From positions 96,001 through 160,000 of the IMG/VR virus record IMGVR_UViG_3300045988_179268: 64,000 nucleotides of DNA. The stretch is one strand, 5' to 3'. Shown here one piece after another: positions 9,101 through 48,172 of the stretch. Numbering within the stretch: position 1 is the first letter of the stretch; each line of letters begins with the position of its first letter. The notes beneath the pieces were generated by a model. The model made no database searches and had not been told where the DNA came from. It saw nothing but the letters and a program-made list of their open reading frames with translations. The position numbers were made by a program, and so were the translations under genes. The stretch is from a virus.

Positions 9101-10162
9101 GGCGGTCACGGAATTGCCGGTACCATCAACATGACCGACAGCAAGCACATCCTGTCGAAGACGAAAGTCGGTAAGCAGGTTGTCAGGTTCTTTGAAACCG
9201 CTCCGGGTAAGGCTAAGCATAACTTCGCTAAGGGCTACGCTGAGAATGGTCTACGTGGTGGCATCACCGAAGCGGCAAAAACTGTCACTCAGCTACCCAC
9301 CATGAACCCCTACAACCGTAAGGGTGCAGTGCGAACTGTCCTTACTGCCCGCTCAACTGGTCTGGAAACTGCCCGCAAGAGCGTTCAAAACATGGACGGA
9401 TTCGATGAAGCAAAGAAAATTGCCCGCGACCTCAACGAAATTAACGCCGCTGAACACGGTGTTAAAGCCTCCGATACCAGCATTGACCGCCTCCGAAGCG
9501 CAAAGGACATCCGCGACGCAAAGAACATGGTCACTGCATTGCAGGAAGCTAAAGCTGAGGAGAAAGCCGCCGCTGAAAAAACCGTCCAGGAACGCTACGA
9601 AGCACAGAAGAACTATGTCGAACGGCTGGGCGGAACATGGCAGGCACCCGAAGGTAAGGAACATGAAGCTAACGTCCAATCCGCACTTGAAGAGCGTAAA
9701 CGTTCCAGTGAAGCCTCACACAGCATGGTTCAAGAAACCGTTGAGAAGCAGTCGGCACAATCCAGAACTCCGAAGGATGAGCGTTTTGACATTCAAAACG
9801 ACATCCGCGTCACCCCCGAAGAGAAAGCTATCCATAAGGTAGCTGGCAAGGAAAACACTCTAAGGTACGCCGCTAAATCTGTTGGGACTCGGGCGGCAAA
9901 CCGATTCCATGAGCGATTCCTCGACAATAGGAATACCGAACGGATAACCGAAGCTTTCCAGAGTGGCTACCTTAACGGGATGCCAGAAGAAGTCGAAAAC
10001 GCGCTAACTCTCACCGAGGAACAGCTGAATGACCGACCTCTGGAAGAGCTTGAGCGCATCCAAACCTGGCTCCGATACCATAAGACCAGCCAATCACCTG
10101 ATGAGCATAAGCGACTTCTTGAGGTACTGGAAAAGCTCATTAGCTATAAGAAGCGTAGGTAA
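6140..10162 (+). CDS. giant polytopic membrane protein; candidate mating-channel (VirB6/TrbL/PrgH-analogue) component
   Basis: 1340-aa ORF with a signal-like MRLVASIMLALLIATSFMPASVNVAFA. It has a large Cys-containing extracytoplasmic region, two clusters of TM helices (~aa 600-700 and 880-990) and a charged coiled-coil tail. The function is inferred only from architecture and from its position next to the M23 gene. Confidence 0.55.
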   Translation: MARTYTTWGKSPNLTRPASNGNLFMRLVASIMLALLIATSFMPASVNVAFADDGDKKTVEKLQEAQKQLGVTESGDKGFTQALDKAKKDGSKTSFAKVLNRVLTPSYIYQHPKSSTDGYYKDNKKWSCDANDPNKGLLTYHNCDVPNYIADLGQNLYSAVAPGGIQRGGAESNKLDMPWLGLPTGVKSVPATASARVEKYTAMELYGYNLRVTYYNGEFDHIQVQTEARLMGNFGASQTLALGVSAIFNGATEGASGAVQAFKDEWAKGNPFGSVAAAFTAGAQTSAAAAIDTILDTSDANVMATRGYTRVGINNTLYNARAATNAEMEQEIINTIAAAIAGKTPEEVRLPDDLKQLQTPPAQPSAGGTTCIVTNPDGTKSTISKLADENACSEAAKTANMENPQYQWDASDKQAESIKDWKEHNKGWFEAAQKYNLTCNVDEDEAKRDETLSSFYSCVPTAYTAAVQKYTKEKEGEAGKKLAETLNQPGFFQDFLKKNLAANFNNPANQYYCLNIDGTDKLDANGKPMKLFTANGAYNPDCTPTRAPIKGGIYGTGDGAITDTRRELYDSNLASMLFSSDGVFTDFTNAGIMSAAAVTRFANAALNIGMSPLLQTFGVDNLIAELITLFTKSAFYPFGIIAALIGLLLIVRESITKGNRGIKTLAMFILGLLVISTTATLTLNKPHETIKFVDKSVNVLDSFIADALVSKSIGDEICSATGNSGVIKYATKRTDSDPATRTLMCEVWRMNVLTPWSYAQWGTGYNNLYAVDAKRPTTAHTLTNTNSAQVSRAPVQMGAGITVNNWALYQLDLMSTGTTTEDNPNRPAGITSRDMYRIVDVQAGLDNGAGTDSRYLQHWAGREAMSRASVGALAPVAAIVTGFAVGYFAVYKAIIKAMLLLMLVFLPFILLMALLGKRTKQGTMRYVTTILGLYAQSAILTFLLCLMSVLLINLTSSVTAYIFVFIAQTLLSLLLLLGARKIMKKIMGGHGIAGTINMTDSKHILSKTKVGKQVVRFFETAPGKAKHNFAKGYAENGLRGGITEAAKTVTQLPTMNPYNRKGAVRTVLTARSTGLETARKSVQNMDGFDEAKKIARDLNEINAAEHGVKASDTSIDRLRSAKDIRDAKNMVTALQEAKAEEKAAAEKTVQERYEAQKNYVERLGGTWQAPEGKEHEANVQSALEERKRSSEASHSMVQETVEKQSAQSRTPKDERFDIQNDIRVTPEEKAIHKVAGKENTLRYAAKSVGTRAANRFHERFLDNRNTERITEAFQSGYLNGMPEEVENALTLTEEQLNDRPLEELERIQTWLRYHKTSQSPDEHKRLLEVLEKLISYKKRR

Positions 10163-19026: not shown

Positions 19027-19386
19027 ATGCTAGTGCCCGGTATTGACTACCAGCCACTTAAAGAACTTGACGACCCTAAACACCGCACGACGGAACAACG
19101 TCTAGCAATTTTTAAAACAGTCTATGCTGACAGAGTGCGCCCCCAAGCGACCTATGGAAATTATTTCAGGAGATGGGGTCACGGAAGAATCTTCGGCACG
19201 ATTTTCCGAATCTACGAAAAGAAAATTATGCCCCAAAACGAGGTGAAACCCGAAGACTTTTCCGCTATCCTTGAAAGCATGTATAAGAAAGGCGTGCTCA
19301 TTACAGAGCAGTCATACGAAACGTTCCAGCGGGACTACCTAAAGAAGCGTGAAAGTGAGGTTGAATATGGCGACTGGGAAACGTAG
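19027..19386 (+). CDS. hypothetical protein
   Basis: 119-aa ORF directly after dnaB. Confidence 0.5.
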   Translation: MLVPGIDYQPLKELDDPKHRTTEQRLAIFKTVYADRVRPQATYGNYFRRWGHGRIFGTIFRIYEKKIMPQNEVKPEDFSAILESMYKKGVLITEQSYETFQRDYLKKRESEVEYGDWET

Positions 19387-33306: not shown

Positions 33307-35061
33307 ATGGCACAGGACTCAACGTTAAGCCGTAAAAAGCGCTACCTGCCGCCAAACATTGTCTATGTTTCAGGCACAGAACAGTTTAATAAGTTGCAGA
33401 ACCCTAATAAGCCCCTTAAATCCGAGGCTATAGAAGGTGTTTATGATGCGGCTTTCTACCGCGAGTTCCTGAAATACCTCATGCCGCCCATCACCCCCGG
33501 CGAGGGTCCACGCATCCCAACTAAAGACTCCACAAGCATCTACGGCGTAACCGAAGATGAAGTGAACGAACTGTTATTCCCTGAAATTATTGGCATCTGC
33601 CCAACCATCGAATACCTATGGAATGACATCACCTCAGACCTGCCGTCCATCCCTAACACAATGGACGCTATCGTAGTACACTCAGACTACTATGCGGAAC
33701 TGCGCCGCAATAGCTTGAGGAACCCTCAGCAGGTACCTAACGTACTGCGAATCATGACTACCATCATGGAGACTACGCCCATCTTCGTCCTTGAAGATGC
33801 AAAAGATGCGCTGGAACACAGCCAATATCAGGCTATCCAAGTGGAGATGCAGAACCTACTGTTCACTAAGCAACTGCCGTACACCACTTACAACATTGAA
33901 ATCACCCGCATGGTGCCCAATAACCCCGAAGCGCCTTGGGATACCCTGCCGGAAAACTTCATTGCCTTACAGTTTTACGAAAAAATTCAGCTATTTCTTG
34001 CAAACCCGCCTGAATTTGGCGACCCGGTATTATCGTTCAGAGGCACACTAGAGTCGCGTGTAGACCCTGAGCTTGCCGCAATTCAAGAGGACATCGACCC
34101 TGACGCTACGCATATCAACGGTTCACCGTACCTTGGGCGCGTCATCACAGTAACATCTAAAAAAGGTGGTACTGGTAAGACAACAACCTCGCTAGGTATC
34201 GCACACGCACTCACCACATGGGGTAAAGAAGCTGTGGCGTACAACTATGCAGAGCACGCACTGAAAGTTATTGTGGTAGACCTTGACCTGCAAGACGGTC
34301 AGGTTGGTCTTAACACTAGCGACCAAAGCAAAACTGTTATCGGTATTTTCAACGATTTTCGTGAGTCTACCATCACTAGTGGGCATCGTGTGCTAGGTGA
34401 AGATAAGAAAAAAGACTGGGGCATTATTGAAAAGTACATTATCCGTAACGACCGAGTAGGTTACGACACGCTTCTTGCACCAGAAGACCCGCGTGACTTG
34501 AACGACCTAGACCCTCACTTCTATCGAGCTATAATCAGCACCTTACGTGAGCACTACGACGTAATCATTATTGACACGTCTGTTCAATTAACAGACCCAT
34601 ACATGGTGTTCTGCGCATACCCACTTACCTACAAACTGTATTATGTTGCTGAGCCTTACCCCGGTCCTTTGGACACTATGAAACGACAGTTTAACTATGG
34701 GTTAGGGTCTACACGCAACGGCGGTGGCGGCATGAACCCTCAGCGTATCAGCATCTTTGTAAACAAGATGGAACCTGACCATATCGTTAAGAAAGGCTCC
34801 GCTTTTGCGTTCTGGGACGTTGCAGACTACTCCGTCGGCGGAATCCCAGTGCTTACGGGTGTACCTTATTTACATGAAGCCGCACTAGACGCGGTGAATG
34901 TCAGCTTACCAGGCGGATTCAACTACCTACTGAATAACAAAGGCTACTCCGAAGGCATGTCCCTGTTAGCATACGACATTGTACGCGGCACAGGATATAA
35001 CCTGTTCAGCCCTGAACAGACAAACGATTTGGAAGACTATTTCGCCATGTCAAACCTATAA
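33307..35061 (+). CDS. ParA/MinD-superfamily ATPase of the CpaE/TadZ type with long N-terminal domain
   Basis: Deviant Walker A SKKGGTGKTTTS. VIVVDLDLQDGQV and DVIIIDTS motifs. RBS AAGGAGAAC. Confidence 0.7.
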   Translation: MAQDSTLSRKKRYLPPNIVYVSGTEQFNKLQNPNKPLKSEAIEGVYDAAFYREFLKYLMPPITPGEGPRIPTKDSTSIYGVTEDEVNELLFPEIIGICPTIEYLWNDITSDLPSIPNTMDAIVVHSDYYAELRRNSLRNPQQVPNVLRIMTTIMETTPIFVLEDAKDALEHSQYQAIQVEMQNLLFTKQLPYTTYNIEITRMVPNNPEAPWDTLPENFIALQFYEKIQLFLANPPEFGDPVLSFRGTLESRVDPELAAIQEDIDPDATHINGSPYLGRVITVTSKKGGTGKTTTSLGIAHALTTWGKEAVAYNYAEHALKVIVVDLDLQDGQVGLNTSDQSKTVIGIFNDFRESTITSGHRVLGEDKKKDWGIIEKYIIRNDRVGYDTLLAPEDPRDLNDLDPHFYRAIISTLREHYDVIIIDTSVQLTDPYMVFCAYPLTYKLYYVAEPYPGPLDTMKRQFNYGLGSTRNGGGGMNPQRISIFVNKMEPDHIVKKGSAFAFWDVADYSVGGIPVLTGVPYLHEAALDAVNVSLPGGFNYLLNNKGYSEGMSLLAYDIVRGTGYNLFSPEQTNDLEDYFAMSNL

Positions 35062-37458: not shown

Positions 37459-39102
37459 CTAAAACTCAAAAGCTGAAACGCCATCAAAAACAGACCCATC
37501 AGGGCGACACAAACGAATAGCGCGGATACGGTCATCACAACCATTCGCCAACGCCCACTCATTCACCTTACGCATCATACGGTCACCAGTACACAACCAC
37601 AATACCTGACCAAACACGCTCCTATCATCCTTATACTGCCCCAAAATAGTCTCCAAACGACCAGGCTTCTTACCGAAGCCACGCTCAATCTCAACAGCAA
37701 CACTGCGAGGCTCCCCATCCTCGCCACGCGGAACCATGCACACAATATCCGGCACATGGTACTTCGTCTCAGACGCACCACTCATTACCGCCCACATCCA
37801 CTCATTACCGCCGTAACACTCAGGAGAAACCCCAACACCACCAGCCGCACGCCAACTACGCAACACCTCACCACGGCGCGCAATCAAAACATCGCGCACG
37901 TCAAACCCAGCACGACCCCTAAACATTCCATGAATAGCGCCATTAATCACACGGTCAGGAATCACACTGAAACCACGAGCAACCTGCCCACCAACAACAC
38001 GACCACCAGATACTAAACCACCCAACCCCAAAACATCAACCGCACCATTCACCAACATCGCCCCCACATAATGAATAAGAGTACGATGCTGAAACTCGCT
38101 ATTACCCAGCGTCTTACGCGACACAGTAGCCCCACCAACACCAAACTCATCCAAACCCACACGTGTACCAACCCATACCGTATGACGCAAACCAGGAATG
38201 TCCACCGCCTCCAAACAGCCACGCCCCTGCAACCCCTTCAAATACTTCAACGCCGTAACCCTAGTAGAAACCCCCAACAACAACATCACAGCACGCACAT
38301 CAACCCAGCCAAACAGCCCAACAAACCCCATAATCTCAACCTCACGGCGCGAACCCATCAAACGCGGCGCAACACCACCATCCCCCTTGGAAGCCCTACG
38401 CACACGCTTCAAGCGCTCAGCCACAACATCCGGCGACTCACCAACCAACGGCGGAGACACAACATCAACCTCCCCAACACGAGACAGCCAATAAGAAGCC
38501 TGCTCCAACGCCAAACCATTAGAAACCTCAGTAGAACTCATACGCGAACCTCTCCCATCGTAATCAAAACGAAAACATGACAACTCACCAACACCAGCAC
38601 CTAGCCCCAAACCTCCCGGCGGCGCAACCAACCCACCTAACTCAACACCAACAGCATCACCTAAAGCCTCAACCCCCACACCAGACGCAGGAACAACAAA
38701 CCCATCCTGAATCGCCTCAAAATCAACACCATTCACGCCACCAAAAGACCACCTAGCGCGCGGAGTAACACCAAAAGAAAACCCGCCATGCACAAAAACA
38801 CCACCAACCGTAGAAACAACAGACCCATCCCAAACATACCCAGCACACTCCGCCGCAAAAGACCTAAACGCAACAGGAACCTGCGAAAAATCACGCACAC
38901 CCCGCGCACGCTCCAACACAGACCCATCCTCAACCGCAACACCAGACCCCAACACAAAACCATTCACCAAATGCCCAACACTGAACCCCGCATCACCCAA
39001 CTCACGAATAGACCCAGACCCAGAAAAAACATCCGGCGCTAAACCCTCAACAACCTTACGACCAACATTAACAACAGCCGAAGAAACAGACCCATCAACC
39101 AT
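37459..39102 (-). CDS. Replic_Relax (plasmid replication-relaxation)-like protein with G/V-rich N-terminal extension
   Basis: Start moved to ATG 39102 (GGAGG 7 nt upstream). wHTH-like VRAVMLLLGVSTRVTALKYLKGLQGRGCLEAV, HRTLIHYVGAML, and a PD-(D/E)xK-like VPDIVCMV...AVEIERGFGKK..LGQY. Confidence 0.55.
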   Translation of the reverse strand: MVDGSVSSAVVNVGRKVVEGLAPDVFSGSGSIRELGDAGFSVGHLVNGFVLGSGVAVEDGSVLERARGVRDFSQVPVAFRSFAAECAGYVWDGSVVSTVGGVFVHGGFSFGVTPRARWSFGGVNGVDFEAIQDGFVVPASGVGVEALGDAVGVELGGLVAPPGGLGLGAGVGELSCFRFDYDGRGSRMSSTEVSNGLALEQASYWLSRVGEVDVVSPPLVGESPDVVAERLKRVRRASKGDGGVAPRLMGSRREVEIMGFVGLFGWVDVRAVMLLLGVSTRVTALKYLKGLQGRGCLEAVDIPGLRHTVWVGTRVGLDEFGVGGATVSRKTLGNSEFQHRTLIHYVGAMLVNGAVDVLGLGGLVSGGRVVGGQVARGFSVIPDRVINGAIHGMFRGRAGFDVRDVLIARRGEVLRSWRAAGGVGVSPECYGGNEWMWAVMSGASETKYHVPDIVCMVPRGEDGEPRSVAVEIERGFGKKPGRLETILGQYKDDRSVFGQVLWLCTGDRMMRKVNEWALANGCDDRIRAIRLCRPDGSVFDGVSAFEF

Positions 39103-39165
39103 CAGGAAACCTCCAAAACTTATAAAGAAACTCGCAATCCACATAGCCGAAAACCCACGGCAATG

Positions 39166-39176
39166 TGTGATACAAT
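39166..39176 (+). promoter_or_regulatory. extended -10 promoter (tgTGaTACAAT) for the lipoprotein cassette
   Basis: tgtgatacaat matches the element-wide consensus. It interlocks back-to-back with the minus-strand -10. Confidence 0.45.
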
Positions 39177-39183
39177 CATACCA
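39175..39183 (-). promoter_or_regulatory. extended -10 promoter (TGgTATGAT) for 37459..39102
   Basis: The minus strand reads ttggTATGAT. ~70-nt leader to ATG 39102. Confidence 0.45.
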
Positions 39184-39216
39184 ACCAAACCCCCACCACA
39201 TCAAAGGAAAATCCCC

Positions 39217-39429
39217 ATGAAGAAGCTGTACAACATCGCAGGACTCACCTTAATCGCCACGCTTACCCTCACCGGATGCGGCAATAGTGAGAACACCCAA
39301 AAACCAGATACCACCAAGACATCCCAATCCGAAACAGACAGCCCACGCCGCGTAGTGAAACCCTGCGGGGCAGACACCACCGGCGACATTGAAATGGGTC
39401 AGGGACTCTGCGACCACGAAGAAAGGTAA
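39217..39429 (+). CDS. small lipoprotein
   Basis: MKKLYNIAGLTLIATLTLTGCGNSEN has a signal peptide plus the lipobox LTGC. RBS AAGGAAA. The tracked start 39163 would overlap the promoters. Confidence 0.6.
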   Translation: MKKLYNIAGLTLIATLTLTGCGNSENTQKPDTTKTSQSETDSPRRVVKPCGADTTGDIEMGQGLCDHEER

Positions 39430-39441
39430 CGAACAAACACT

Positions 39442-39720
39442 ATGGAATCATTCATCTACGGAGTTGTTAAAGTAACTCTCGAATACCACACGTACCCCAA
39501 TAACCCGGAAAAGAACCATATTGAAACCCGTGCATGGTACCTAGACGATAATAACAACAAAATTAAAACTGTCAGCACTAGTGACAACCCCCAAATGGAA
39601 GTAGTTCACGCCCTCTCAGAACACAACAAGCCAGTATACCAGAACGGTTTAGTGGGTGAGATGCTAGTCATTAATACAAATGACTACTCAATCTTCGAAA
39701 CCAAATACATTACCCACTAA
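39442..39720 (+). CDS. hypothetical protein (ordinary, AT-leaning composition)
   Basis: 92-aa ORF followed directly by a strong terminator. Confidence 0.55.
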   Translation: MESFIYGVVKVTLEYHTYPNNPEKNHIETRAWYLDDNNNKIKTVSTSDNPQMEVVHALSEHNKPVYQNGLVGEMLVINTNDYSIFETKYITH

Positions 39721-39726
39721 CAAAAA

Positions 39727-39773
39727 AGTATCCCTTAAACTCTCTACAGAGAAGAGTTTAAGGGATACTTTTT
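39727..39773 (+). terminator. rho-independent terminator
   Basis: 17-bp stem agtatcccttaaactct / agagtttaagggatact, then ttttt. Confidence 0.8.
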
Positions 39774-39787
39774 GCCCTATATTTTAA

Positions 39788-40588
39788 CTAACGCCAAGAC
39801 TCCGCGTGGTTCAAATCGCCTTCACAATACGCATAAACAACATCAAACATCTCAGGATACTGCTTAATAAACTCCGCCGGACTCATGCCAGCATACGCCA
39901 AACTAGGACCACCAATCAAAAGCGCCGTCTGAGTCGAACTAAAAGCATCGGAAGACCCATACACCCCCAAAAGCTTCACAATATCCTCCCTCACAGAACC
40001 GCCCTCAAACTGGAAACCAGGGTACCCCATGACACCCACCCACGCCGGATGCTTCGAAAAATCGGACAAAGGGAACCTAAGCACACGATTACTCTTAACC
40101 ATCTCCTCCAACTCACCCGAAGTCACACCCAAATACTCACAGACAGCACGCTCCGTATAGACACCCTGCAAATCTTCACCAAACACCGACTCCACGGCAG
40201 TAAGACCCCTTGAACCCTTGGCGACGGCAGTGTCAATCCCCTCACAAATGTAAGAAGTAAGCTTCTCCCCGTCACCCTCAGCGACATCAAGATACCCCGC
40301 CTCGCACAAGTCATCAACAGCCTTGCAAAGCATCTCCTTAACCCCCTCAACAGTTAGCGGGAACTTGCCTCTACCACCATAAGCAGAATAATAAGGCTGA
40401 GAACCCTCACGTTCACGAAGCATAAACAGCCCAACAGCCGCACAACAATGAAACAGCAAAACACGTTGAAGAGACTCAGTAATCACAACATCACCAGAGC
40501 CAACCTTCACATCAACATACTCACAAACCTCCTGCTTCACACCAGCAAGAACCTCAGCCTGCGCACTAGAAATAACACGAGAAGACAT
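39788..40588 (-). CDS. hypothetical protein, HTH-like plus C-terminal 'FQF...SP' module (family 2)
   Basis: 266 aa. ERAVCEYLGVTSGELEEMVKSNRVL, GYPGFQFEGG and LIGGPSLAYAGMSPAEFI. Confidence 0.55.
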   Translation of the reverse strand: MSSRVISSAQAEVLAGVKQEVCEYVDVKVGSGDVVITESLQRVLLFHCCAAVGLFMLREREGSQPYYSAYGGRGKFPLTVEGVKEMLCKAVDDLCEAGYLDVAEGDGEKLTSYICEGIDTAVAKGSRGLTAVESVFGEDLQGVYTERAVCEYLGVTSGELEEMVKSNRVLRFPLSDFSKHPAWVGVMGYPGFQFEGGSVREDIVKLLGVYGSSDAFSSTQTALLIGGPSLAYAGMSPAEFIKQYPEMFDVVYAYCEGDLNHAESWR

Positions 40589-40629
40589 TAAGCAACCCCC
40601 ACAATAGAAAGAAAAATAAGTGCAAAACT

Positions 40630-40638
40630 ATGATACCA
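40630..40638 (-). promoter_or_regulatory. extended -10 promoter (TGgTATCAT) for 39788..40588
   Basis: The minus strand reads tttggtatcat ~40 nt upstream of ATG 40588. Confidence 0.45.
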
Positions 40639-40713
40639 AACAAGGCAACACAAACACTAAAAACTGGGAGGGGTGAAACAAAAAACTTCACCCCTCCCAG
40701 CACCTACAAACGG

Positions 40714-41910
40714 CTACCCGCAATACCGCACAACCGCAAGAACCGCATCCACATACTCATCACCAAGACGCGCATACTCAACAGGCGCAACCAACCCAAA
40801 CCACGGCGACGGACTCTCCAAAAACTCAACAATACGGTCATCACCCCAACCCCAATCACGCAACTCACCCACAAGACGCACAGACCCAGAGAAAAACACC
40901 CAATCAATCACTAACCCATCATCCCCATAAACAGGCATCAGATGCACACCCTCAACAATATAATCGCCATCCCCATACTTCCCCGCCAGCAACTCGCCAG
41001 ACTCACACATACCCGCCACTACATCCTCAGGAACCCCCAACCCCTTAGCTACCTTGTGGGGTGGCAAACCAGCCCAACGGACACCATTAGAACGCTCATC
41101 AATACTAGCGAAACGGTGAACCAAAACACCCCACGGGACACGCAAAACCTCAGCCAAAGCCCCCAAATCAGCCAAAGAACCGCCACCCACAGACGGAACA
41201 ACACCTGCCACCGTCAAAGCAACAACATTCCCCGGCACTGGAACATTACCCACACCAGCACGCCCCCACGCACGCCCAACAACCTCAGCGCGCCGCCCCA
41301 ACGCACATTCACGCGCATCATCCAACACAAGAGCAACCAGAGCCTCATCACCCGACATCAACAACTCAGCCGCCGACAAAAACCCATACTCAAACGACGG
41401 CGTGAACAAAAAATCATCAGTAATATGAGGCTTCACACCAACAGCCCTGAACATCTTCACACACTCAAAAAACTCAGGGTTAAACCTCAAAGCGCCCTCA
41501 CCAGACACACTCCAAACTCCCTTACCGGCACCACCCCAAAACTGGGCACGAGTAAACAGCAAAGCACCCTCCCAGATGCCACCATTAAGGTAACCCTCCT
41601 CATACAGGCGCATCACCTCAGTGCCCGGCAACCCCTTATCCTCCAGCTCAGCCAAAGACAACCCGTCACCCCACTCACAATAAATACCCCACCCGGCAGA
41701 ACCGCCTCCAAACGCTTCCTCCAAACGCTCATACATGAACTCAGTAGAGACACCAAGAACACTAGAAACTAGCTCAAAATGCTCATTCTCCCAATCATAA
41801 GTAGACTTGGGAAGCCCTAAAGAACGAACCCTCAACACATCCTCAGCAGAGAAAAACTTGAAGCCAGGGTACTCATCAAAAACATTGTGCAACATGGAAG
41901 TAGCCTCCAA
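40714..41910 (-). CDS. hypothetical protein (family 2, duplicated module)
   Basis: 398 aa. GGAGG RBS before ATG 41910. G/V/W-rich. C-terminus FLESPSPWFGLVAPVEYARLG. Confidence 0.55.
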   Translation of the reverse strand: MEATSMLHNVFDEYPGFKFFSAEDVLRVRSLGLPKSTYDWENEHFELVSSVLGVSTEFMYERLEEAFGGGSAGWGIYCEWGDGLSLAELEDKGLPGTEVMRLYEEGYLNGGIWEGALLFTRAQFWGGAGKGVWSVSGEGALRFNPEFFECVKMFRAVGVKPHITDDFLFTPSFEYGFLSAAELLMSGDEALVALVLDDARECALGRRAEVVGRAWGRAGVGNVPVPGNVVALTVAGVVPSVGGGSLADLGALAEVLRVPWGVLVHRFASIDERSNGVRWAGLPPHKVAKGLGVPEDVVAGMCESGELLAGKYGDGDYIVEGVHLMPVYGDDGLVIDWVFFSGSVRLVGELRDWGWGDDRIVEFLESPSPWFGLVAPVEYARLGDEYVDAVLAVVRYCG

Positions 41911-42054
41911 AAGAAAAACAAAAATACTTGCACTCCCTATAATACCCCCCCCCTCAAAAAATCAAGAAAACACGCCGGTAAACATCTCTAGATACAATAC
42001 ATCCCACGCATAGAAGAGAATTAGAACACCCCTAAAGAGCATCCATCGCAAATA

Positions 42055-42065
42055 TGTGGTACAAT
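42055..42065 (+). promoter_or_regulatory. extended -10 promoter (tgTGgTACAAT) for 42179..43000
   Basis: Exact match to the island consensus. The ~110-nt leader contains the perfect hairpin ggttgagg-tgag-cctcaacc (42077-42096). Confidence 0.5.
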
Positions 42066-42178
42066 CTAAACATGAAAGGTTGAGGTGAGCCTCAACCCAC
42101 CACCCCACCCTAACCATACAGGGAACCCAAAAAAGGGGCGAACACCCAATCATTAAACACAGAAAGAGAGCATCAACA

Positions 42179-43000
42179 ATGCGAAACATCACCCCCTTCC
42201 TCTACTGGGAAACCCTCAACACCAACGACGGTATCCTCCTCATCCCCACCGACAACACCACCAACGACCGCATGGCAATCTACACCATCGACCAGGTAAC
42301 CAACACCGACCACGCCACCGCACGCCTGCGCCACGCAAGCTTCAACGCACCCAAGACCATCACCCTCACCCGCACCAACGGACAGCTCACCACCAACGAC
42401 CTACCAGACCTCAAAGCCGTAAACATCGGCACCCGAGGCGACGCTATCGAACCCACCTACTACGCCGTCGAAAACGACGACAACATCACCATCTGGTACA
42501 GCACCGAACACTACAACGACATCGCCATCGCACACACCCTCAAAGCCAACGGAGAAACCCGCGTAATCTTCCACGAACCCGACGAATACGATACCCCCGA
42601 AGGCGGGTACAACATCTGGACAGTCCTCCAAGCAACCGAAAACTACGAAGACACCGACACCCTCCCCGAAACCTTCAACATCCCAGAAGCCAACACCGCA
42701 CCTCTCACCCCCGAAACCGCACTAGCACTCCACGACACCCTCAACCACCCCGAATACCACACCCTCAACGACAAAGAAACCCTCGAAGAAGAACTAATCT
42801 CCCTCTGGCAAAACATCTCAGACTACTACGCAATCCCTGGCGAAATGCACTGGGTATCCGACACTGAAATCCTCTGGCGCGCCAAAGACTACCTCACCAC
42901 CGTACACGACATCGCAATCAAAGAAGGACGCGCCAACCTAGCCAACCAAACCCTCCACCACATCAACACCATCACCACCCACACCAACTACGAAGAATAA
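42179..43000 (+). CDS. hypothetical T/N/D/H/E-rich protein (A+C-rich coding strand)
   Basis: 273-aa ORF with diverse, protein-like sequence (..ILWRAKDYLTTVHDIAIKEGRANL..). It has its own promoter. Only one short mirror ORF lies antisense. Confidence 0.55.
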   Translation: MRNITPFLYWETLNTNDGILLIPTDNTTNDRMAIYTIDQVTNTDHATARLRHASFNAPKTITLTRTNGQLTTNDLPDLKAVNIGTRGDAIEPTYYAVENDDNITIWYSTEHYNDIAIAHTLKANGETRVIFHEPDEYDTPEGGYNIWTVLQATENYEDTDTLPETFNIPEANTAPLTPETALALHDTLNHPEYHTLNDKETLEEELISLWQNISDYYAIPGEMHWVSDTEILWRAKDYLTTVHDIAIKEGRANLANQTLHHINTITTHTNYEE

Positions 43001-43021
43001 CCCCCAAAACACCAAAAGATA

Positions 43022-43057
43022 CCCCTGGCAACCCGCACAAACACGGGAAACCAGGGG
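43022..43057 (-). terminator. hairpin terminator, U-tract only on the minus strand
   Basis: cccctgg / ccagggg with inner cccg / cggg. The minus strand continues tatcttttggtgtttt. Lies 27 nt after the stop of minus ORF 43084..45360. Confidence 0.55.
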
Positions 43058-43083
43058 CATCTTCCTATACCACCAACAACACA

Positions 43084-45360
43084 CTAACCACCCAAAACCG
43101 ACACAACCTCACCCACCGAAACACCCAACCCCAACACCGGCGAACCAACCGGCACATCAACCCAACCACCAGAAACACCCCAACCAGAACGACCAAACAA
43201 CCCAGCAGACCCACCACCACCAGAAACAACCCCCACCGGCGAACCAAACCCCTCACTACCAGCCACAAACCCCAAACCCAACCCACCATCCAAACCACCA
43301 CGCCCAGAAACAACCGAACCAACAACACCAGACAAAACACGCCCACCAACAGACCCCAAAACACCATCCAAACCACCACGCAACAACCCCCACAAAACAC
43401 CAGAACCCAAACCCGCAACCCTACCAAACACCGGACAAACCCCCGACAACCCCAAACCACCACCAACACCAGACACCACATCAACCAACCCCACCACAGA
43501 CGAAACACCCCTCAAACCACCAACCAAAGAACCCACCGGCGACCCACCAGGCAAAACACCACCACCAAACACACCCGACAAACCCCCAACACCCCACAAA
43601 CCAGACACACCATCAACCACACCACCACAAGAACCAGCAACCCCCACCGACAAAACACCACCACCAAACACCGACCCAAACCCCACAGGAACAAGCCCCG
43701 CCCCAAACACAAGAGAACGCCACAACCACCCATCAACATCAACCACAGCCCCAACACCCCCATCAACAAAACCACCATCAACATCAAAACCCTCAACAGC
43801 ACCAACAACACCAGACACACCCGGCACAAAACCACCAGCCCCAACACCCCAAACACCAACCCTACGCCCAAAACCAGCCCCAACACCACCACCACCCAAA
43901 ACACCCAAACCAGCAGACGACAAACCCCAAGAACAAGACAACCCGCCAACACCAGAAACACCCCCACCAACCGGCAACCCAAAAACCCCAACAACACCCG
44001 ACAAATCAACACCAAACCCCGAAACAGAACCCAAACCAGCCAACGCATCCAACCCAGACACCCCCGACACCAACCACGGCACAGCAACCCCAACACCACC
44101 AGAAACCCCACCAACATCCGCCGCACCAGCACCCACACCACCAAACCCAGCAGAGCCAACCCCACCAAAATCAACCCCACCGACAAAATCACCAACGGGC
44201 AAACCAATCGGCAAACCGCACACCCCAGACCCCATAAACAACCCCACTGGCGAACAACCCAACATGCCCAATAACCCATCAACCCCACCAGCCACAGAAC
44301 CACCAAACCCAGACGAAGAACCAAACCTCACGCCAGAACCACCCACAACACCAAACAAACCCGAACCTCTAGAAGCCCCCACAGACCTATTAAAACTAGT
44401 AGAAGGTAAAACAGTACCGCCAATAGACAAAACACCCTCAGAAGCCCCCTCAAGCCCCGTAGAAACCCCCTCTATAGTAACCCCATCAGTAGCAGGCTCA
44501 GAAAACTCCTCGCCACCACCCCAAAAACCCTCAACAAAACCGCCACCAACACCAACCCCCACAAAACCCCCAACACCATCCACAACACCAGACGAGCCCC
44601 ACCCCACCGACACACCAACCCCCACAGGCTCAACAAAACCGGCACCACGAAGCGAACCACCCCAAACACCAACCCGCCCATCAACCCCCAACAACCCAAC
44701 AACACCAGAATCAACGCCCCACAACTCAACACCAACCCCACCCGGAACAAACACCCCACACACACCACCAGACAACCCATCCCCCAACAACCCAGAACCC
44801 AAACCACCAACACCAACACCAGACTCCAAAACACCACGCCCAACAACCACAACAACCACACTCCAAAAAAGAAAAAACAAAAAAATAGTACACCACAAAC
44901 ATAGCCACAAAAACACCCCCACCCAGACAACCCCCAAAAAACAAAACCCCCAACACCCACCCAACAAACAAAAACCCCACAAAAACACCCCCACAACAAA
45001 AAAAACCAAACCAACCACCCCAAGCAAACCCCAAAAAACAACGCACCACAAACCCAAAACCACACAAAGAACTTGGGCAACACTAAAAATAAACACCAAA
45101 AACACGAATAACCAAGACACAAGACACAAGAGAAAAGGAAAAAGCAACAAGACATAACAGACACAGACACGCAAAGAGGAAAGCAATAACACTACAAAGA
45201 AAGAAGTACCCAGGATAAACAGATACACAAAATAAACACCAATACACGACAGACATAGAGGATAAGCGCAGACACATACACCATAAACAGAAAGAAGCAC
45301 AGGCACACAATACGCAAGCACAGAAAAACACGAAGGCAACAACAGATACAAGAGACACAC
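43084..45360 (-). CDS. candidate G/V/S-rich low-complexity protein (start uncertain; coding strand unresolved)
   Basis: 758-codon stop-free frame, with a minus-strand terminator just downstream. Composition resembles the G/V-rich N-terminus of 37459..39102. The N-terminal C/W/F-rich 170 aa look unnatural. Confidence 0.3.
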   Translation of the reverse strand: MCLLYLLLPSCFSVLAYCVPVLLSVYGVCVCAYPLCLSCIGVYFVYLFILGTSFFVVLLLSSLRVCVCYVLLLFPFLLCLVSWLFVFLVFIFSVAQVLCVVLGLWCVVFWGLLGVVGLVFFVVGVFLWGFCLLGGCWGFCFLGVVWVGVFLWLCLWCTIFLFFLFWSVVVVVVGRGVLESGVGVGGLGSGLLGDGLSGGVCGVFVPGGVGVELWGVDSGVVGLLGVDGRVGVWGGSLRGAGFVEPVGVGVSVGWGSSGVVDGVGGFVGVGVGGGFVEGFWGGGEEFSEPATDGVTIEGVSTGLEGASEGVLSIGGTVLPSTSFNRSVGASRGSGLFGVVGGSGVRFGSSSGFGGSVAGGVDGLLGMLGCSPVGLFMGSGVCGLPIGLPVGDFVGGVDFGGVGSAGFGGVGAGAADVGGVSGGVGVAVPWLVSGVSGLDALAGLGSVSGFGVDLSGVVGVFGLPVGGGVSGVGGLSCSWGLSSAGLGVLGGGGVGAGFGRRVGVWGVGAGGFVPGVSGVVGAVEGFDVDGGFVDGGVGAVVDVDGWLWRSLVFGAGLVPVGFGSVFGGGVLSVGVAGSCGGVVDGVSGLWGVGGLSGVFGGGVLPGGSPVGSLVGGLRGVSSVVGLVDVVSGVGGGLGLSGVCPVFGRVAGLGSGVLWGLLRGGLDGVLGSVGGRVLSGVVGSVVSGRGGLDGGLGLGFVAGSEGFGSPVGVVSGGGGSAGLFGRSGWGVSGGWVDVPVGSPVLGLGVSVGEVVSVLGG
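44264..45157 (+). CDS. alternative reading: P/T/K/N-rich disordered protein (frame open from 43088)
   Basis: By hand translation the plus frame is stop-free over 43088-45157, but there is no ATG/GTG/TTG before 44264 and no RBS. Shares wobble positions with the minus ORF. Confidence 0.2.
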   Translation: MPNNPSTPPATEPPNPDEEPNLTPEPPTTPNKPEPLEAPTDLLKLVEGKTVPPIDKTPSEAPSSPVETPSIVTPSVAGSENSSPPPQKPSTKPPPTPTPTKPPTPSTTPDEPHPTDTPTPTGSTKPAPRSEPPQTPTRPSTPNNPTTPESTPHNSTPTPPGTNTPHTPPDNPSPNNPEPKPPTPTPDSKTPRPTTTTTTLQKRKNKKIVHHKHSHKNTPTQTTPKKQNPQHPPNKQKPHKNTPTTKKTKPTTPSKPQKTTHHKPKTTQRTWATLKINTKNTNNQDTRHKRKGKSNKT

Positions 45361-45709
45361 AAAAGAAGATAAGAGGCAACACAGTACGTATACACAAGAA
45401 AGGCAAAAGAAGCATAAAGAGAGGACATAAGAGCGGAAGGCACATATATGCTAGAAACACATAGGGATACACGCAGACTAAGTAATACACGACAGGTATA
45501 GAGAGGGTAGGTAGATAGGGTAAGCACGCATAGGATGGCACACGGTATATACGGAGGGGCTAGAAACGGTTAGTGGGTGTGAGTGGTGGTAGGTTGGGCA
45601 GGGTGGAAGGTGGTGTGGTGGTTGGGTGTGGTGTGGGTCATATTGCTCACGCGGTTGGTTGCTCTTTCCCTTTTTTCTTTCTCCTTTTCTTGTGTTTTTG
45701 GTAGCGTGC

Positions 45710-45772
45710 TGTGGCGCGGGGTATTTTTGGGTGTTTCGGTATGTGGGGGAATGTATCATTTGCCCTAGTCAG
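45710..45772 (+). repeat. 63-bp direct repeat, copy 1
   Basis: tgtggcgcggggtatttttgggtgtttcggtatgtgggggaatgtatcatttgccctagtcag is identical to 45955-46017. Confidence 0.9.
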
Positions 45773-45811
45773 GACGTTTTTGCGTTTTGGGTGACAGGGC
45801 TGTAGTAGTGG

Positions 45812-45843
45812 CTTAAAATCAACCTGTAGAAGTTGATTTTAAG
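45812..45843 (+). terminator. hairpin 40 nt after repeat copy 1
   Basis: cttaaaatcaac / gttgattttaag, then gtgtttt. Confidence 0.4.
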
Positions 45844-45954
45844 GTGTTTTATATAGATTTTTGAGGTGAATTGGGTTGTCTGCGTCTTTGGCGCAGGGGT
45901 TTTGGTGGTAATTATGACGTTTTTTAGGTTTTTTGGGTGGGTTTTTGTGTGCAT

Positions 45955-46017
45955 TGTGGCGCGGGGTATTTTTGGGTGTTTCGGTATGTGGGGGAATGTA
46001 TCATTTGCCCTAGTCAG
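45955..46017 (+). repeat. 63-bp direct repeat, copy 2
   Basis: Identical to 45710-45772. The two tracked ORFs read the repeat in different frames, so it is probably non-coding. Confidence 0.9.
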
Positions 46018-46058
46018 CGCGTTATGCACTTTGGTACAGATTCTCATTTTCAGGGGTT

Positions 46059-46086
46059 AAAAATCAACCTCCAGGGGTTGATTTTT
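46059..46086 (+). terminator. hairpin 42 nt after repeat copy 2 (same stem core as 45812-45843)
   Basis: aaaaatcaacc / ggttgattttt. Confidence 0.4.
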
Positions 46087-46220
46087 GGTAAGCGCATGGT
46101 GCGAGCGCGATTTTAAGCCTTGGTGCCGGGGTGTCGAAGGATGGTTTTTATTGCTTTGCGGGTGCCAGGTGTGGTAGGTTGCGCCATTGTGTATCACAAG
46201 CTTGCGTGTCGTCTATTTTC

Positions 46221-46231
46221 TGTGGTATAGT
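46221..46231 (+). promoter_or_regulatory. extended -10 promoter (tgTGgTATAGT)
   Basis: tgtggtatagt lies 77 nt before ATG 46308. The leader has hairpin ggcgggtaa-tcg-ttacctgcc. Confidence 0.5.
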
Positions 46232-46307
46232 TATAGGGTAATCATATGGCGGGTAATCGTTACCTGCCGTTATTCTTCATCTTGTTCCTATGGAGGGATT
46301 GTTAGTT

Positions 46308-46661
46308 ATGGCTTTTAGTGTTGAGATTCAGGTTAGGGCTAAGAACACTTATGCCCGGTTGGTGTGTTCTTTGTCTGAGATTGGTGCGCTGTTCTCTACG
46401 GGCAGTTTTGTGAAGGCGGCGGTTTTGAATTTGGCGATGTTTGATGCGAGCGCTTCGTCTGCTAATCCTAGTGTGTGGGATGGGGTGGATGAGAAAGAGC
46501 GTCGCTTGCAGTGGTCGTACAATGAGTTGCGTAACCTTGCGTCTTCTTTTGCCCCCGATTGGGCTGAGGCTGTTGCTAAGGATGATGAGGCGCTGGCTTT
46601 GGAGATTTTGAACGCTGTGGATGATGTGGTTTCTTATGCGCGTGAGCGTGTATTTGGTTAG
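46308..46661 (+). CDS. hypothetical protein
   Basis: ATG 46308 after GGAGGG is preferred over the tracked start 46290. 117 aa. Confidence 0.55.
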   Translation: MAFSVEIQVRAKNTYARLVCSLSEIGALFSTGSFVKAAVLNLAMFDASASSANPSVWDGVDEKERRLQWSYNELRNLASSFAPDWAEAVAKDDEALALEILNAVDDVVSYARERVFG

Positions 46662-46830: not shown

Positions 46831-47916
46831 ATGTCTGTTTTTCCTGGTGATGTTGTGTCTACTGTTGTGGGTGTTCTGCATGTGCAGACTATTGTTATGG
46901 AGCGTTCGCGTGAGGATGTGTCTTTCGCGGTGTCTGGTGTTGATGGTGGGGGTGTGGTTCACTCGAACATTCCTATTGGTGAGGGTGTGGTTCCGTTGGC
47001 TGTTGATGTGCCTGAGTCTGAGGCGTTGGTGTGGTTTGACCGTGAGCGTCGCTTGAAGCGTTTGGGGGATGCTGTGTTTAGTCCTGGTGATGGTGTTAGG
47101 GCTTTGGGTAAGCTGATGGAGGGGCAGGGTGTTGAATTGTCGTTGTCTGACTGTGAACCTGCTGAGGCTGTTGTTAGGTGGCTGGGTGAGGTTGAGGCTT
47201 CTCTGGTTGGGGCGAGGGCGTGGGTTACAGGGAAGCGTATGGAGTGCCTGCGTGCGTTTGAGGATTTTCATGCGGGCTGGTTGAAGTATCATAGTCGCCC
47301 TTGGGGTGAGCCGTCTTTGGGTGAGCGTTGTGATGTGCGACCTGGTATTGGGTTTAGGTCTGGTGGTGTGTATCGGTTCCGACGTGAGGGTGCGCCTATT
47401 GAGGATGGGTATGAGTATTTCAAGGTTGTTCGTACTGTCGGTCAGCCTGAGATTGTTATTTATGGTGCGTCTACTGAGGTAAGTGAGTGTCTGGGTTTTA
47501 TTCATGGTGTTAAGTATGGTCCTAACTATGATTATCTTCTCCTGCTGGCTGAGGTTGGCGGTAAGAAGATTTCGATGCTGGCGGATACTGTGAAGCTTCT
47601 GCCTATTGGTTCTTTTGAGGATATTGAGTCTTACCTTGAGTTGAGTGAGTATGAGGACGTTTCTCTTCCTGGCGCATTGCGCAACATTTTCCTTGACCTG
47701 TTTGCCGCTGGTGACGGTAAGCCTAAGTGCCTGCCCTCCCGTGAAGAGCTTAACGGTGGCTACTACGGTTGGGGTGATGACTACGGTAAGCGTTGTGGTG
47801 AGTTGATGGAGGCAAGTGCTGACATTCTGTTCGATATTGAGAAGAGTATCGGGTATGTCCGGTGGTTGCGTGAACAGCTGGTAGGCTTCTATCGTGAGCT
47901 AGGGTTCACTATCTAG
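46831..47916 (+). CDS. family-1 paralog (V/G-rich, G+T-recoded copy)
   Basis: Aligns with 52996..54063 and 60347..61120 (VSGV, WFD, ARAWV..KR.ECL, VYRF, GKPKCLPS, FDIEKSIGYVRW). RBS GAAAGGG. Confidence 0.65.
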   Translation: MSVFPGDVVSTVVGVLHVQTIVMERSREDVSFAVSGVDGGGVVHSNIPIGEGVVPLAVDVPESEALVWFDRERRLKRLGDAVFSPGDGVRALGKLMEGQGVELSLSDCEPAEAVVRWLGEVEASLVGARAWVTGKRMECLRAFEDFHAGWLKYHSRPWGEPSLGERCDVRPGIGFRSGGVYRFRREGAPIEDGYEYFKVVRTVGQPEIVIYGASTEVSECLGFIHGVKYGPNYDYLLLLAEVGGKKISMLADTVKLLPIGSFEDIESYLELSEYEDVSLPGALRNIFLDLFAAGDGKPKCLPSREELNGGYYGWGDDYGKRCGELMEASADILFDIEKSIGYVRWLREQLVGFYRELGFTI

Positions 47917-48161
47917 GGGGGTCGCCGCCTAGGGAGGGGTGGCGTATGGGAGCCGCTGAATCCTCCGGCTACTAGGTTTGGGTGACCGCTCTTGTAGTTG
48001 ATGGCGAGCGCTCTCTTGGGCGGCTATGTCTTAGTGGTGGTTGTTTGCTGGTTGCTTCGCTAAGTGTGGTGATGGGTGTGAGTGCTTGAAGGGTGCTCAT
48101 GCCCATCATTTGTTTCTGCTGGGGTGAGCCACACACTATAGCTTGCGCCCCCGTCTGAATC

Positions 48162-48172
48162 TGTGGTATAAT
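48162..48172 (+). promoter_or_regulatory. extended -10 promoter (tgTGgTATAAT)
   Basis: tgtggtataat lies 70 nt before ATG 48242 (RBS GAGGAG). Confidence 0.55.

Follow-up and report, generated by a model that had tools for sequence, protein, structure and literature searches.

The 64,000-nucleotide (nt) stretch studied here (hereafter the window; positions 96,001 to 160,000 of IMG/VR virus record IMGVR_UViG_3300045988_179268) is part of an element of about 319 kb from human oral metagenomes, as identified by exact protein look-up, and carries two perfect 63-base-pair (bp) direct repeats to the right of an abrupt switch in strand composition. We give roughly even chances to the reading that each repeat consists of a promoter-like box and the first transcribed bases of a small non-coding unit, the two units being siblings. 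This reading draws on the anatomy, orientation, position and conservation of the units, on the concerted evolution of their boxes and on stem changes that fit folding of the plus strand. Transcription would begin from a hexamer in each repeat and, we infer, yield short RNAs that may act through their 5′ core to regulate right-arm (early or establishment) genes or replication.

The 63-mer TGTGGCGCGGGGTATTTTTGGGTGTTTCGGTATGTGGGGGAATGTATCATTTGCCCTAGTCAG occupies positions 45710–45772 and 45955–46017 on the plus strand, without a mismatch between the copies, which lie 245 nt apart. An earlier note on this DNA had pointed out a perfect 63-bp repeat; there are exactly two copies, none of 100 dinucleotide-preserving shuffles gave such a match, and the 64-kb window holds no further copy with three or fewer mismatches. 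Similarity between the copies extends to 69 nt at 97%. The hairpin reported after each repeat is also there, as AAAATCAACC-N6-GGTTGATTTT at 45815–45840 (with one mismatch) and 46060–46085, in the same 245-nt register, and the spacers between repeat and hairpin, described as differing, are both 42 nt long and do differ in sequence. Of the T-runs that had been assigned to both hairpins, the first passes a terminator scan and the second turns out to be paired within the stem. Searches of the window with nhmmer and a covariance model found only these two units, whose parts are as follows.

45710–45772, plus strand: repeat copy 1, the promoter-like box and the first 14 nt of the conserved core.
45754–45759, plus strand: −10-like hexamer TATCAT of unit 1, predicted start at 45767/45768.
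45759–45778, plus strand: conserved core TTTGCCCTAGTCAGGACGTT of unit 1.
45767–45850, plus strand: predicted RNA of unit 1 (type A), about 84 nt; the core and then T-rich GTTTTTGCGTTTT, with no hairpin 1; covariance model 41.7 bits.
45815–45840 (extending over 45812–45843), plus strand: hairpin 2 of unit 1, followed by GTGTTTTATA.
45955–46017, plus strand: repeat copy 2.
45999–46004, plus strand: −10-like hexamer TATCAT of unit 2, predicted start at 46012/46013.
46004–46023, plus strand: conserved core TTTGCCCTAGTCAGCGCGTT of unit 2.
46012–46087, plus strand: predicted RNA of unit 2 (type B), about 75 nt; core, hairpin 1, linker and hairpin 2; covariance model 98.7 bits.
46025–46038, plus strand: hairpin 1 of unit 2, TGCAC-TTTG-GTACA, with one C·A mismatch here and GTGCA or GTGTA in relatives.
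46060–46085, plus strand: hairpin 2 of unit 2, AAAATCAACC-TCCAGG-GGTTGATTTT.
46101–46108, plus strand: GCGAGCGC motif, which follows type-B units in most lineages, in some with the palindrome GCGAGCGCTCGC.

In the mechanism that we propose, a T-tract and a lineage-specific box would lead into a minimal −10-like hexamer of the form N-A-N-N-N-T, and transcription would start about 8 nt past it, at 45767/8 and 46012/3, running rightwards on the G/T-rich strand. The conserved (A)GUCAG-N-GCGUU core would form the 5′ end of the RNA. Unit 2 would then continue through a hairpin of 5 bp and a variable linker rich in U to a second hairpin, which in most copies of this type runs into a T-run, for an RNA of about 75–85 nt; unit 1 would have a T-rich stretch after the core and then, in this lineage, the same terminal hairpin. 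Tandem small-RNA cassettes were one of two options offered by the earlier note, and this option fits the comparative data on the hexamer, on the conservation of the bodies and on the plus-strand changes in the stems.

Our comparative set comprises about 40 loci with 79 distinct units and was brought to this size by a metagenome pattern scan that was filtered by composition and a second motif, since the unfiltered degenerate pattern gave many chance matches. The same layout is kept in all of these loci, which span at least eight lineages: a non-coding gap of about 1.46 kb that separates divergent genes, then the switch in composition, then cassettes on the G/T-rich side, from one to five or more in number and all on the same strand. 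Across those lineages the neighbouring 547-amino-acid (aa) protein falls to 32–67% identity. The order of the composition blocks is kept in all relatives compared, and wherever a locus includes the switch, the first unit lies 175–670 nt to its right on the G/T-rich strand. The repeats, whose absence from relatives had been proposed as grounds for giving up the idea, are carried by every relative examined.

Relatives in the window clade and the L003 clade have two units 245–257 nt apart, and those in the L016 and L017 clades, with 547-aa proteins 61–67% identical to that of the window, have two units about 197 nt apart. The most distant locus, L015 (32% identity in the 547-aa protein), has two 90-nt direct repeats that are 76% identical and 626 nt apart, with GGGGTATGAT or GGGGGTATTAT ahead of a TTT(A/G)CTCTAG core. 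What is conserved between lineages is not the 63-mer but a 20-nt core, TTTKCC(C)TWGTCAG-N-GCGTT. In type A, represented by unit 1 of the window, a T-rich stretch follows this core; in type B, represented by unit 2, the order after the core is ATGCAC-N4-GTGCA (hairpin 1), the variable U-rich linker and AATCAACC-N6-GGTTGAT (hairpin 2). The covariance model finds three to four type-B units per 13–15-kb locus, 0.7–6 kb apart, in the clade of L021, L043, L059, L091 and L115; the extra units sit in right-arm intergenic regions before individual genes, 1.5–6 kb from the switch in several lineages. Whole L003-clade contigs of 307 kb and 361 kb contain the box twice and the type-B signature once. All units are co-oriented with the right-arm genes. 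In many, hairpin 2 is succeeded at a distance of 35–55 nt or about 195 nt by a separate canonical extended −10 promoter that serves the next gene, which makes the units distinct from the 5′ untranslated regions of those genes.

A short motif accompanies type-B units. Written as GCGAGCGC(TCGC) or (T)TGCGAGCGCG, it stands after, sometimes before, them; the perfect 12-bp palindrome GCGAGCGCTCGC that it forms in several lineages is a candidate operator. In the L059 lineage (reverse strand, about 8949–9230), GTGTGGTATGGTGGT, which matches a canonical extended −10, occurs twice at a distance of 130 nt, immediately to the right of the switch, and a strong terminator of the form CCCCGTGTCTGG...CAGGTGCGGGG then TTTT, with G–U pairs valid on the plus strand only, comes after the pair. 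The stretch from GTGTGGTATGGTGGT to this terminator makes up one more short unit with promoter and terminator, and it precedes the first cassette.

The boxes and the bodies have different histories. The 65 nt upstream, which take in the start of the core, are 0.75–0.97 identical between the units of one genome (0.97 here); orthologous units from different clades share 0.69–0.77 there. By contrast, the bodies follow orthology: the unit-2 or type-B body is 0.75–0.88 identical between clades, and the body after copy 2 is the best-conserved non-coding piece between lineages. Judged by these identities, the upstream boxes evolve in concert within a genome, as expected for promoters that answer one input. 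Full identity over 63 bp is an extreme case of this pattern that is particular to one lineage, as the two copies of the close relative L012 share only 43 identical bases.

The hexamer lies 14–9 nt upstream of GTCAG. Of 78 distinct units, 73 have A at its position 2 and all 78 have T at its position 6, in surroundings where A makes up about 15%; 44 of the 46 type-B units match N-A-N-N-N-T. Positions 1 and 3–5 vary across eight common types (TATCAT here; TAATGT, TATTAT, TAATAT, CAATGT, TAGCCT, GAGCCT and GAGCTT elsewhere). A2 and T6 are the two indispensable bases of a sigma-70-type −10 element. The TATCAT that the earlier note called −10-like varies between lineages; what is kept, at a fixed distance from the core, is the N-A-N-N-N-T pattern. 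Other promoter assignments were tried and rejected. Matches from a sigma-70 scan at 45791–45819 (plus strand) and 46137–46110 (minus strand) are not kept in relatives; Bacteroidetes-type and sigma-54 fits to the box, read from the aligned units, do not hold across lineages; an extracytoplasmic-function (ECF) fit (GGAAT ... GTT) has a spacing of 23 nt, which is too long; and a sigma-B/F-type fit (GTTTcg-N12-GGGTAa) is present only in the L003 clade.

Pairing in the hairpins amounts to 90%, compared with no more than 53% once their 3′ partners are slid. One-sided changes in the stems replace G–C by G–U or C–G by U–G, and would give A·C mismatches on the minus strand. These changes break the dyad symmetry and keep the plus-strand pairing; they are consistent with a folded plus strand and not with a folded minus strand. 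Of 43 type-B units, 26 have a T-run after hairpin 2, and we found no link between a missing T-run and a missing downstream promoter.

Several results weigh against sibling small-RNA units. The window has no Rfam match at gathering thresholds, and 45400–46400 gives only chance-level matches (E = 2.9–6). No −35 element or TGn extension is recognisable in the units, unlike in the canonical promoters of the element; a consensus scan calls no promoter in the repeat, and the first base of the hexamer is G in 30 of 78 units. A free T-run is lacking in 17 of 43 type-B units and in unit 2 of the window, and hairpin 2 is A/U-rich, including the base of its stem. In a hand-made alignment of type-B units the stems are nearly invariant, with covariation not above that of shuffles. 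A larger, model-fitted alignment speaks for the units, with 10 pairs carrying double changes versus 4.1 in shuffles (0 of 500 shuffles reached this level), but it is itself biased towards structure, and some of the excess comes from lineages in which a different hairpin replaces hairpin 2. Antisense targets of the bodies or the core within the window are at chance level.

The units lie in a gap that is non-coding by its pattern of insertions and deletions. Two-letter stretches are stop-free on both strands and open reading frames (ORFs) in them are uninformative alone, so indels were used instead. Aligned with relatives at about 64–74% DNA identity, the window has indels in multiples of 3 between 43065 and 44823 and indels of arbitrary length from 44917 rightwards; the units of relatives differ by 1-nt gaps. 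The repeat had been called unlikely to be coding on the grounds that ORFs read it in different frames. The ORFs at 45626–45805 and 45937–46116 in fact share a frame and both contain CGAGYFWVFRYVGECIICPSQ, but the non-coding status is upheld on other grounds, namely the indels, the gaps between units of relatives and the lack of a conserved ORF. These two 59-aa ORFs (plus strand) are not conserved, although similar gene calls exist in some relatives, as in L007 (7232–7543 and 7733–7924), and they are probably artefacts of stop-poor G/T-rich sequence. A small ORF from the conserved ATGCAC (30 aa in the window) was likewise rejected, as it is not conserved and has 16 aa and 7 aa in relatives. The gap and the genes around it are arranged as follows.

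37459–39102, minus strand: 547-aa family-specific protein, with a Gly/Val-rich N-terminal half of low predicted confidence.
43084–44850, minus strand: Gly/Val-rich gene of 588 aa, supported by indels; the gene call of the European Nucleotide Archive (ENA) starts at 44850, and GGAG lies upstream of the GTG start.
44851–46307, no strand assigned: 1,457-nt non-coding gap between divergent genes, with non-triplet indels and no conserved ORF.
46202–46231, plus strand: canonical promoter (TTGCGT, 18 nt, TGgTATAGT) that serves the first rightward gene; conservation 0.97.
46246–46270, plus strand: conserved 11-bp hairpin in the 5′ untranslated region of the same gene.
46308–46661, plus strand: first rightward gene, a family-specific protein of 117 aa, with GGAGGG at 46292–46297.

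The promoter, the 5′ untranslated hairpin and the GGAGGG of the first rightward gene are all highly conserved, and its 117-aa protein has no family match. Strong promoters of the element, TTGCGn-17/18-TGnTAnnnT, occur at six places in the window (46202, 48143–48172, 42057, 39168, 39183 on the minus strand, and 63527). In the 547-aa protein, an AlphaFold model of poor quality (mean predicted local distance difference test score, pLDDT, 46), for which Foldseek finds only MarR-type winged helices, places a MarR-like winged helix at about residues 250–312; the C-terminal beta/alpha domain has an H-x-PD ... E-x-E-x-G ... K motif. It has no Pfam match except a sub-threshold HTH_IclR in one member, and nothing significant among Protein Data Bank (PDB) sequences (best E = 0.1). 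A suspected likeness to Replic_Relax or InoC could not be confirmed.

To the left of the units the plus strand passes through a series of two- and three-letter blocks, which the earlier note had described and which composition counts confirm. Between 43001 and 45080, A+C is about 0.85–0.93 and T 0.03–0.05; this A/C-only block exists because the coding strand of the 588-aa gene is about 90% G+T. From 45161 to 45540 the composition is A 0.49, G 0.22, C 0.19 and T 0.09; from 45571 to 45650 it is G 0.51 and T 0.31 (82% G+T), with GGG runs; and from 45661 to 45700 it is T 0.65 and C 0.25 with no A (90% T+C). Composition and skew change sign at about 45490–45570.

44851–45540, plus strand: T-poor tract, A/C to about 45080 and then A-rich A/G/C.
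45450 and 45559 (span 45450–45564), plus strand: GCTAGAAAC motifs at the edge of the switch; relatives have 3–4 copies within about 150 nt.
45571–45650, plus strand: G/T block with GGG runs.
45621–45660, plus strand: conserved block GTTGGGTGTGGTGTGGGTCATATTGCTCACGCGG, between the G and T/C blocks, with column conservation of 0.95–0.97 in a 16-sequence alignment.
45661–45700, plus strand: polypyrimidine T/C block.

The blocks of the T-poor tract recur in relatives L003, L016, L017, L059 and L015. This tract is almost A-free on the minus strand and by its composition leaves little scope for a sigma-70-type −10 on either strand. GCTAGA(A/C)A clusters lie left of the G block (45450–45455 and 45559–45564 in the window, 8491–8647 in L003, and about 19116–19249 on the reverse strand of L016); they are rare T-containing islands and could be protein sites or minus-strand −10-like TAGCnT. 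Another island, the conserved GTGTTGCCCAAGTTCTTTGTGTGG on the minus strand at 45060–45085, sits inside the T-free tract and loosely resembles the cassette core (TTGCCC-nAGT). A mirror-image left-arm unit was considered and rejected, as the core-like island GTTGCCCAAGTTC (minus strand, about 45075) is present in the window and L003 clades only and is missed by the models. A proposal that the G-runs could form G-quadruplexes (G4) finds no support: the canonical motif (runs of three or more G, loops of 12 nt or less) is absent from the plus strand at 45–47 kb, and the nearest plus-strand motif is at 47099. The H-DNA and R-loop structures that were suggested along with G4 are speculative.

The asymmetry is extreme over 42000–45100 and strongest at 43000–45080, where T is 3–5% and G 8–9% over 2 kb, with a GC skew of −0.70 and an AT skew of +0.84; the asymmetric stretch contains a real minus-strand gene, as it does in all relatives. 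GC skew passes from −0.70 (43–45 kb) to +0.35 (46–48 kb), with a cumulative minimum at about 45 kb, and its absolute value peaks at 0.3–0.7 within a few kilobases of the switch and fades outward. Plus-strand genes at 0.2–37 kb have C>G and A>T; beyond 46 kb, on the right, genes on this strand show G>C and T>A. Since plus-strand genes on the two sides have opposite skews, the skew does not simply follow transcription, and a replication origin at the switch, where the two gene arms also diverge, is plausible, judged by the skew of the 64-kb window. No DnaA-box cluster was found at the switch region and no conserved AT-rich unwinding element; the only AT-rich patch (45830–45866) is not kept in relatives. 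The neighbouring genes gave no match to a Rep initiator in Pfam, NCBIfam or PHROG.

A reading that overlaps with sibling small-RNA units, and that we consider unlikely, is that each unit acts in cis, as a leader or attenuator. RNA synthesis starting at the box, or at a promoter upstream of it near the T/C block, would meet hairpin 2 and either stop or continue into the right-arm genes, under the control of a factor that recognises the conserved core and hairpin 1, as in a phage nut site plus terminator or in prgQ/IRS1 of pCF10. The units always lie upstream of, and point to, right-arm genes, as a leader would; most, however, are then followed by the downstream gene's own canonical promoter. 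Read-through would be permitted by the roughly 40% of type-B units that lack a T-run after a longer hairpin 2. Upstream starts have candidates in L059, where the counterpart of the T/C block leads directly to a canonical extended −10 promoter that precedes the first unit by about 190 nt, and in the window, where TGGTAGCGT lies at 45697–45705 just before copy 1, but the latter is not kept in the closest relative, L012. In some lineages an alternative AGUGC/GCACU pairing competes with hairpin 1, yet this pairing hangs on a variable base of the core, and no antiterminator-like gene was identified.

Double-stranded protein sites are a distinctly unlikely explanation. The core, the palindrome AATCAACC-N6-GGTTGATT or both would serve as operators, or as initiator or centromere-like sites, concentrated at the origin-like switch, and candidate binders would be the 547-aa winged-helix protein (37459–39102) or a partner of the ParA-like ATPase (33307–35061). 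Such sites would account for the fact that in type-B units the core and the two arms of each hairpin are conserved at the sequence level and covary little, for the constant 6-nt spacing of the hairpin-2 arms, for the concerted evolution of boxes within a genome and for the presence of at least one unit within 700 nt of the switch in every lineage; the MarR-like winged helix of the 547-aa neighbour is the sole support for its binding the repeat. The stems themselves argue otherwise. Hairpin 1 has GTGTA in 10 of 27 type-B units and hairpin 2 has GGTTGTTTT in 15 of 27, variants in which dyad symmetry is broken and RNA pairing is kept or a U-tract created, and some lineages swap hairpin 2 for a different hairpin sequence. 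Sites of the parS type are palindromes or arrays to which a ParB/ParR-type adaptor binds, beside the par operon or grouped around the origin. Hairpin 2 occurs twice as a palindrome of 10+10 nt with 6 nt between its arms, but its symmetry is broken in 15 of 27 relatives, and no partition adaptor protein was identified (the ParA-like gene lies 10 kb away). The extra copies lie kilobases from the switch; the two copies of the window are co-oriented and 245 nt apart, with no helically phased iteron array, and neither a DnaA-box cluster nor a conserved AT-rich unwinding element accompanies them. The iteron or partition repeats that the earlier note offered as its other option are not supported on these same grounds: two oriented copies 245 nt apart, no AT-rich element or DnaA-box cluster, and copies 1.5–6 kb away. 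No shorter internal periodic repeat was reported within the two 63-bp copies.

It is very unlikely that the switch is a transcription-primed bidirectional origin at which concertedly evolving tandem promoters fire short G/U-rich transcripts that open or prime it. The near two-letter composition, which extends for several kilobases to either side, would then be a mutational footprint of long-lived displaced single strands, or would be selected, as a two-letter strand cannot fold or hold palindromes and would keep restriction sites and secondary structure out of the region near the origin and the early region. We hold it very improbable indeed that the boxes are primer or R-loop promoters, whose rightward G/U-rich transcripts would form persistent hybrids and prime the leading strand, leaving the A/C versus G/T asymmetry as a footprint of displaced strands: the units are the first features right of the cumulative GC skew minimum, the skew is strongest within a few kilobases of the switch and decays outward, the tandem promoter-like box is retained even in diverged L015 and the non-template strand is G-rich, but the terminator-like hairpin would stop the RNA at about 80 nt, extra copies lie before genes far from the switch, no mirror-image left-side unit was found across lineages, no signature of RNase H, Pol I or a PriA site was seen, although no search aimed at one was made, and the origin itself is placed by the skew of a 64-kb window.

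The element that carries the sibling units has been assembled as 319,371 bp (Joint Genome Institute, JGI) and 319,425 bp (ENA), the ENA version being 54 bp longer. The terminus of the ENA scaffold is the first 55 nt of repeat copy 1 (window 45710–45764), an assembly break; a scaffold that ends on the repeat with a 54-bp excess is compatible with a circular assembly that was opened at the repeat and kept a k-mer overlap. The perfect 63-bp repeat also accounts for the breaks that short-read assemblies of these elements show at precisely this point. Human oral metagenomes are likewise the source of the related loci, whose contigs measure 190–375 kb; two are listed in IMG/VR as viral genomes. A Gram-positive-type conjugation gene set is encoded in the left 37 kb of the window, with the following members.

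Left 37 kb, conjugation set: VirB4/TcpF-like ATPase, CD3337/EF1877-family membrane protein, M23 peptidase and PilT/VirB11-like ATPase.
Left 37 kb, further members: ParA-like ATPase and DnaB-, RecG- and SbcC-like proteins, with TcpE seen in relatives.
33307–35061: the ParA-like ATPase, about 10 kb from the units.

The G+C content of the element is about 49%, and its promoter type and ribosome-binding sites suggest a Gram-positive bacterial host. Nucleotide-level comparison found no similarity to known phages or plasmids, a search for transfer RNA and transfer-messenger RNA genes found none, and neither the 117-aa protein family nor the type-B signature matched any of 185,579 reference genomes (GTDB species genomes). 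The cassettes are specific to an undescribed group of giant, conjugative-plasmid-like elements of the human mouth, which measure 190–375 kb across the loci examined.

If transcribed, the units would form a new small-RNA family, absent from Rfam and from the 185,579 reference genomes, that would mark the control region of widespread undescribed 190–375-kb oral elements. The signature TTTKCC(C)TWGTCAG-N-GCGTT followed by ATGCAC-N4-GTGCA offers a compact means of finding these elements and of orienting their replication and early region. The asymmetry beside the units is unusual for any replicon, and makes the switch a natural system for studying the effects of replication, transcription and single-strand exposure on base composition.

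Among giant elements, the closest likeness is to Inocle (PMC12340149) and the Hodor megaplasmids (PMC12934698), which are also 200–400-kb circular elements from human-associated metagenomes, mostly unannotatable and plasmid-like, and whose origins were inferred from skew or non-coding regions, as here. Inocle has 24–32% G+C and the marker InoC with a Pfam Replic_Relax domain (PMC12340149); with about 49% G+C, the present element is not Inocle. Hodor megaplasmids have Rep_3 adjoining an AT-rich oriV of more than 2 kb and are called viral by virus-finding pipelines (PMC12934698). Contigs of the present family are likewise listed as viral genomes in IMG/VR. As far as the window shows, the element is not a Hodor megaplasmid either; its switch region consists of two-letter blocks and is not AT-rich. 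A Pfam search of the genes at 37459–45360, from the conjugation module to the switch, found no family, and so no Rep_3 or Replic_Relax.

With iteron origins (P1, RK2, pSC101 and F) the locus shares identical direct repeats, a large non-coding region, a putative origin and concerted copies, but those origins have at least three units of 17–22 bp in helical phase, whereas here there are two 63-bp copies. The T7 primary origin (phi1.1A/phi1.1B followed by an AT-rich stretch), ColE1 RNA II and T4 oriF/oriG resemble it in their tandem boxes at a skew-placed origin with a G-rich non-template strand; unlike them, the present locus has no conserved AT-rich stretch, a hairpin after each box, and extra copies away from the switch. 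An Frpo/ssi single-strand promoter of conjugative leading regions (an imperfect hairpin of about 300 nt, the stem of which restores a −35/−10 duplex on the transferred strand) was rejected, as each unit has only two short local hairpins and no long-range inverted repeats, as was a ToxI-like type III toxin–antitoxin system (30–50-nt repeats, a terminator and a ToxN-family gene), given the 245-nt period and a downstream 117-aa protein without a family match.

Short, structured, terminator-ended RNAs beside a plasmid origin or replication module are also known as copy-control RNAs (ColE1 RNA I, R1 CopA, pT181 RNA I/II and pIP501 RNA III). These are antisense to a rep leader or primer, whereas no opposing transcript, rep gene or complementary partner is evident here. 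The defining feature of an antisense copy-control RNA is lacking: no gene or canonical promoter opposes the units, the conserved nearby promoter at 46202–46231 is co-directed with them, and the hexamer, the G–U changes and the T-runs are all on the plus strand.

Paralogous sibling small-RNA genes are represented by LhrC1-4 of Listeria and Qrr1-5 of Vibrio, which have their own promoter and terminator and in some cases stand head to tail. Such siblings share a short conserved motif and differ elsewhere, and their promoters answer a common input. The present units differ in that they have no sequence or Rfam relationship to LhrC or Qrr, no target or seed complementarity that we could find and no recognisable −35 or regulator site, and in that they reside on a giant mobile element beside a skew switch. 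By their sequence organization across lineages, the cassettes look like an undescribed family of sibling small-RNA-like genes rather than replication-origin iterons.

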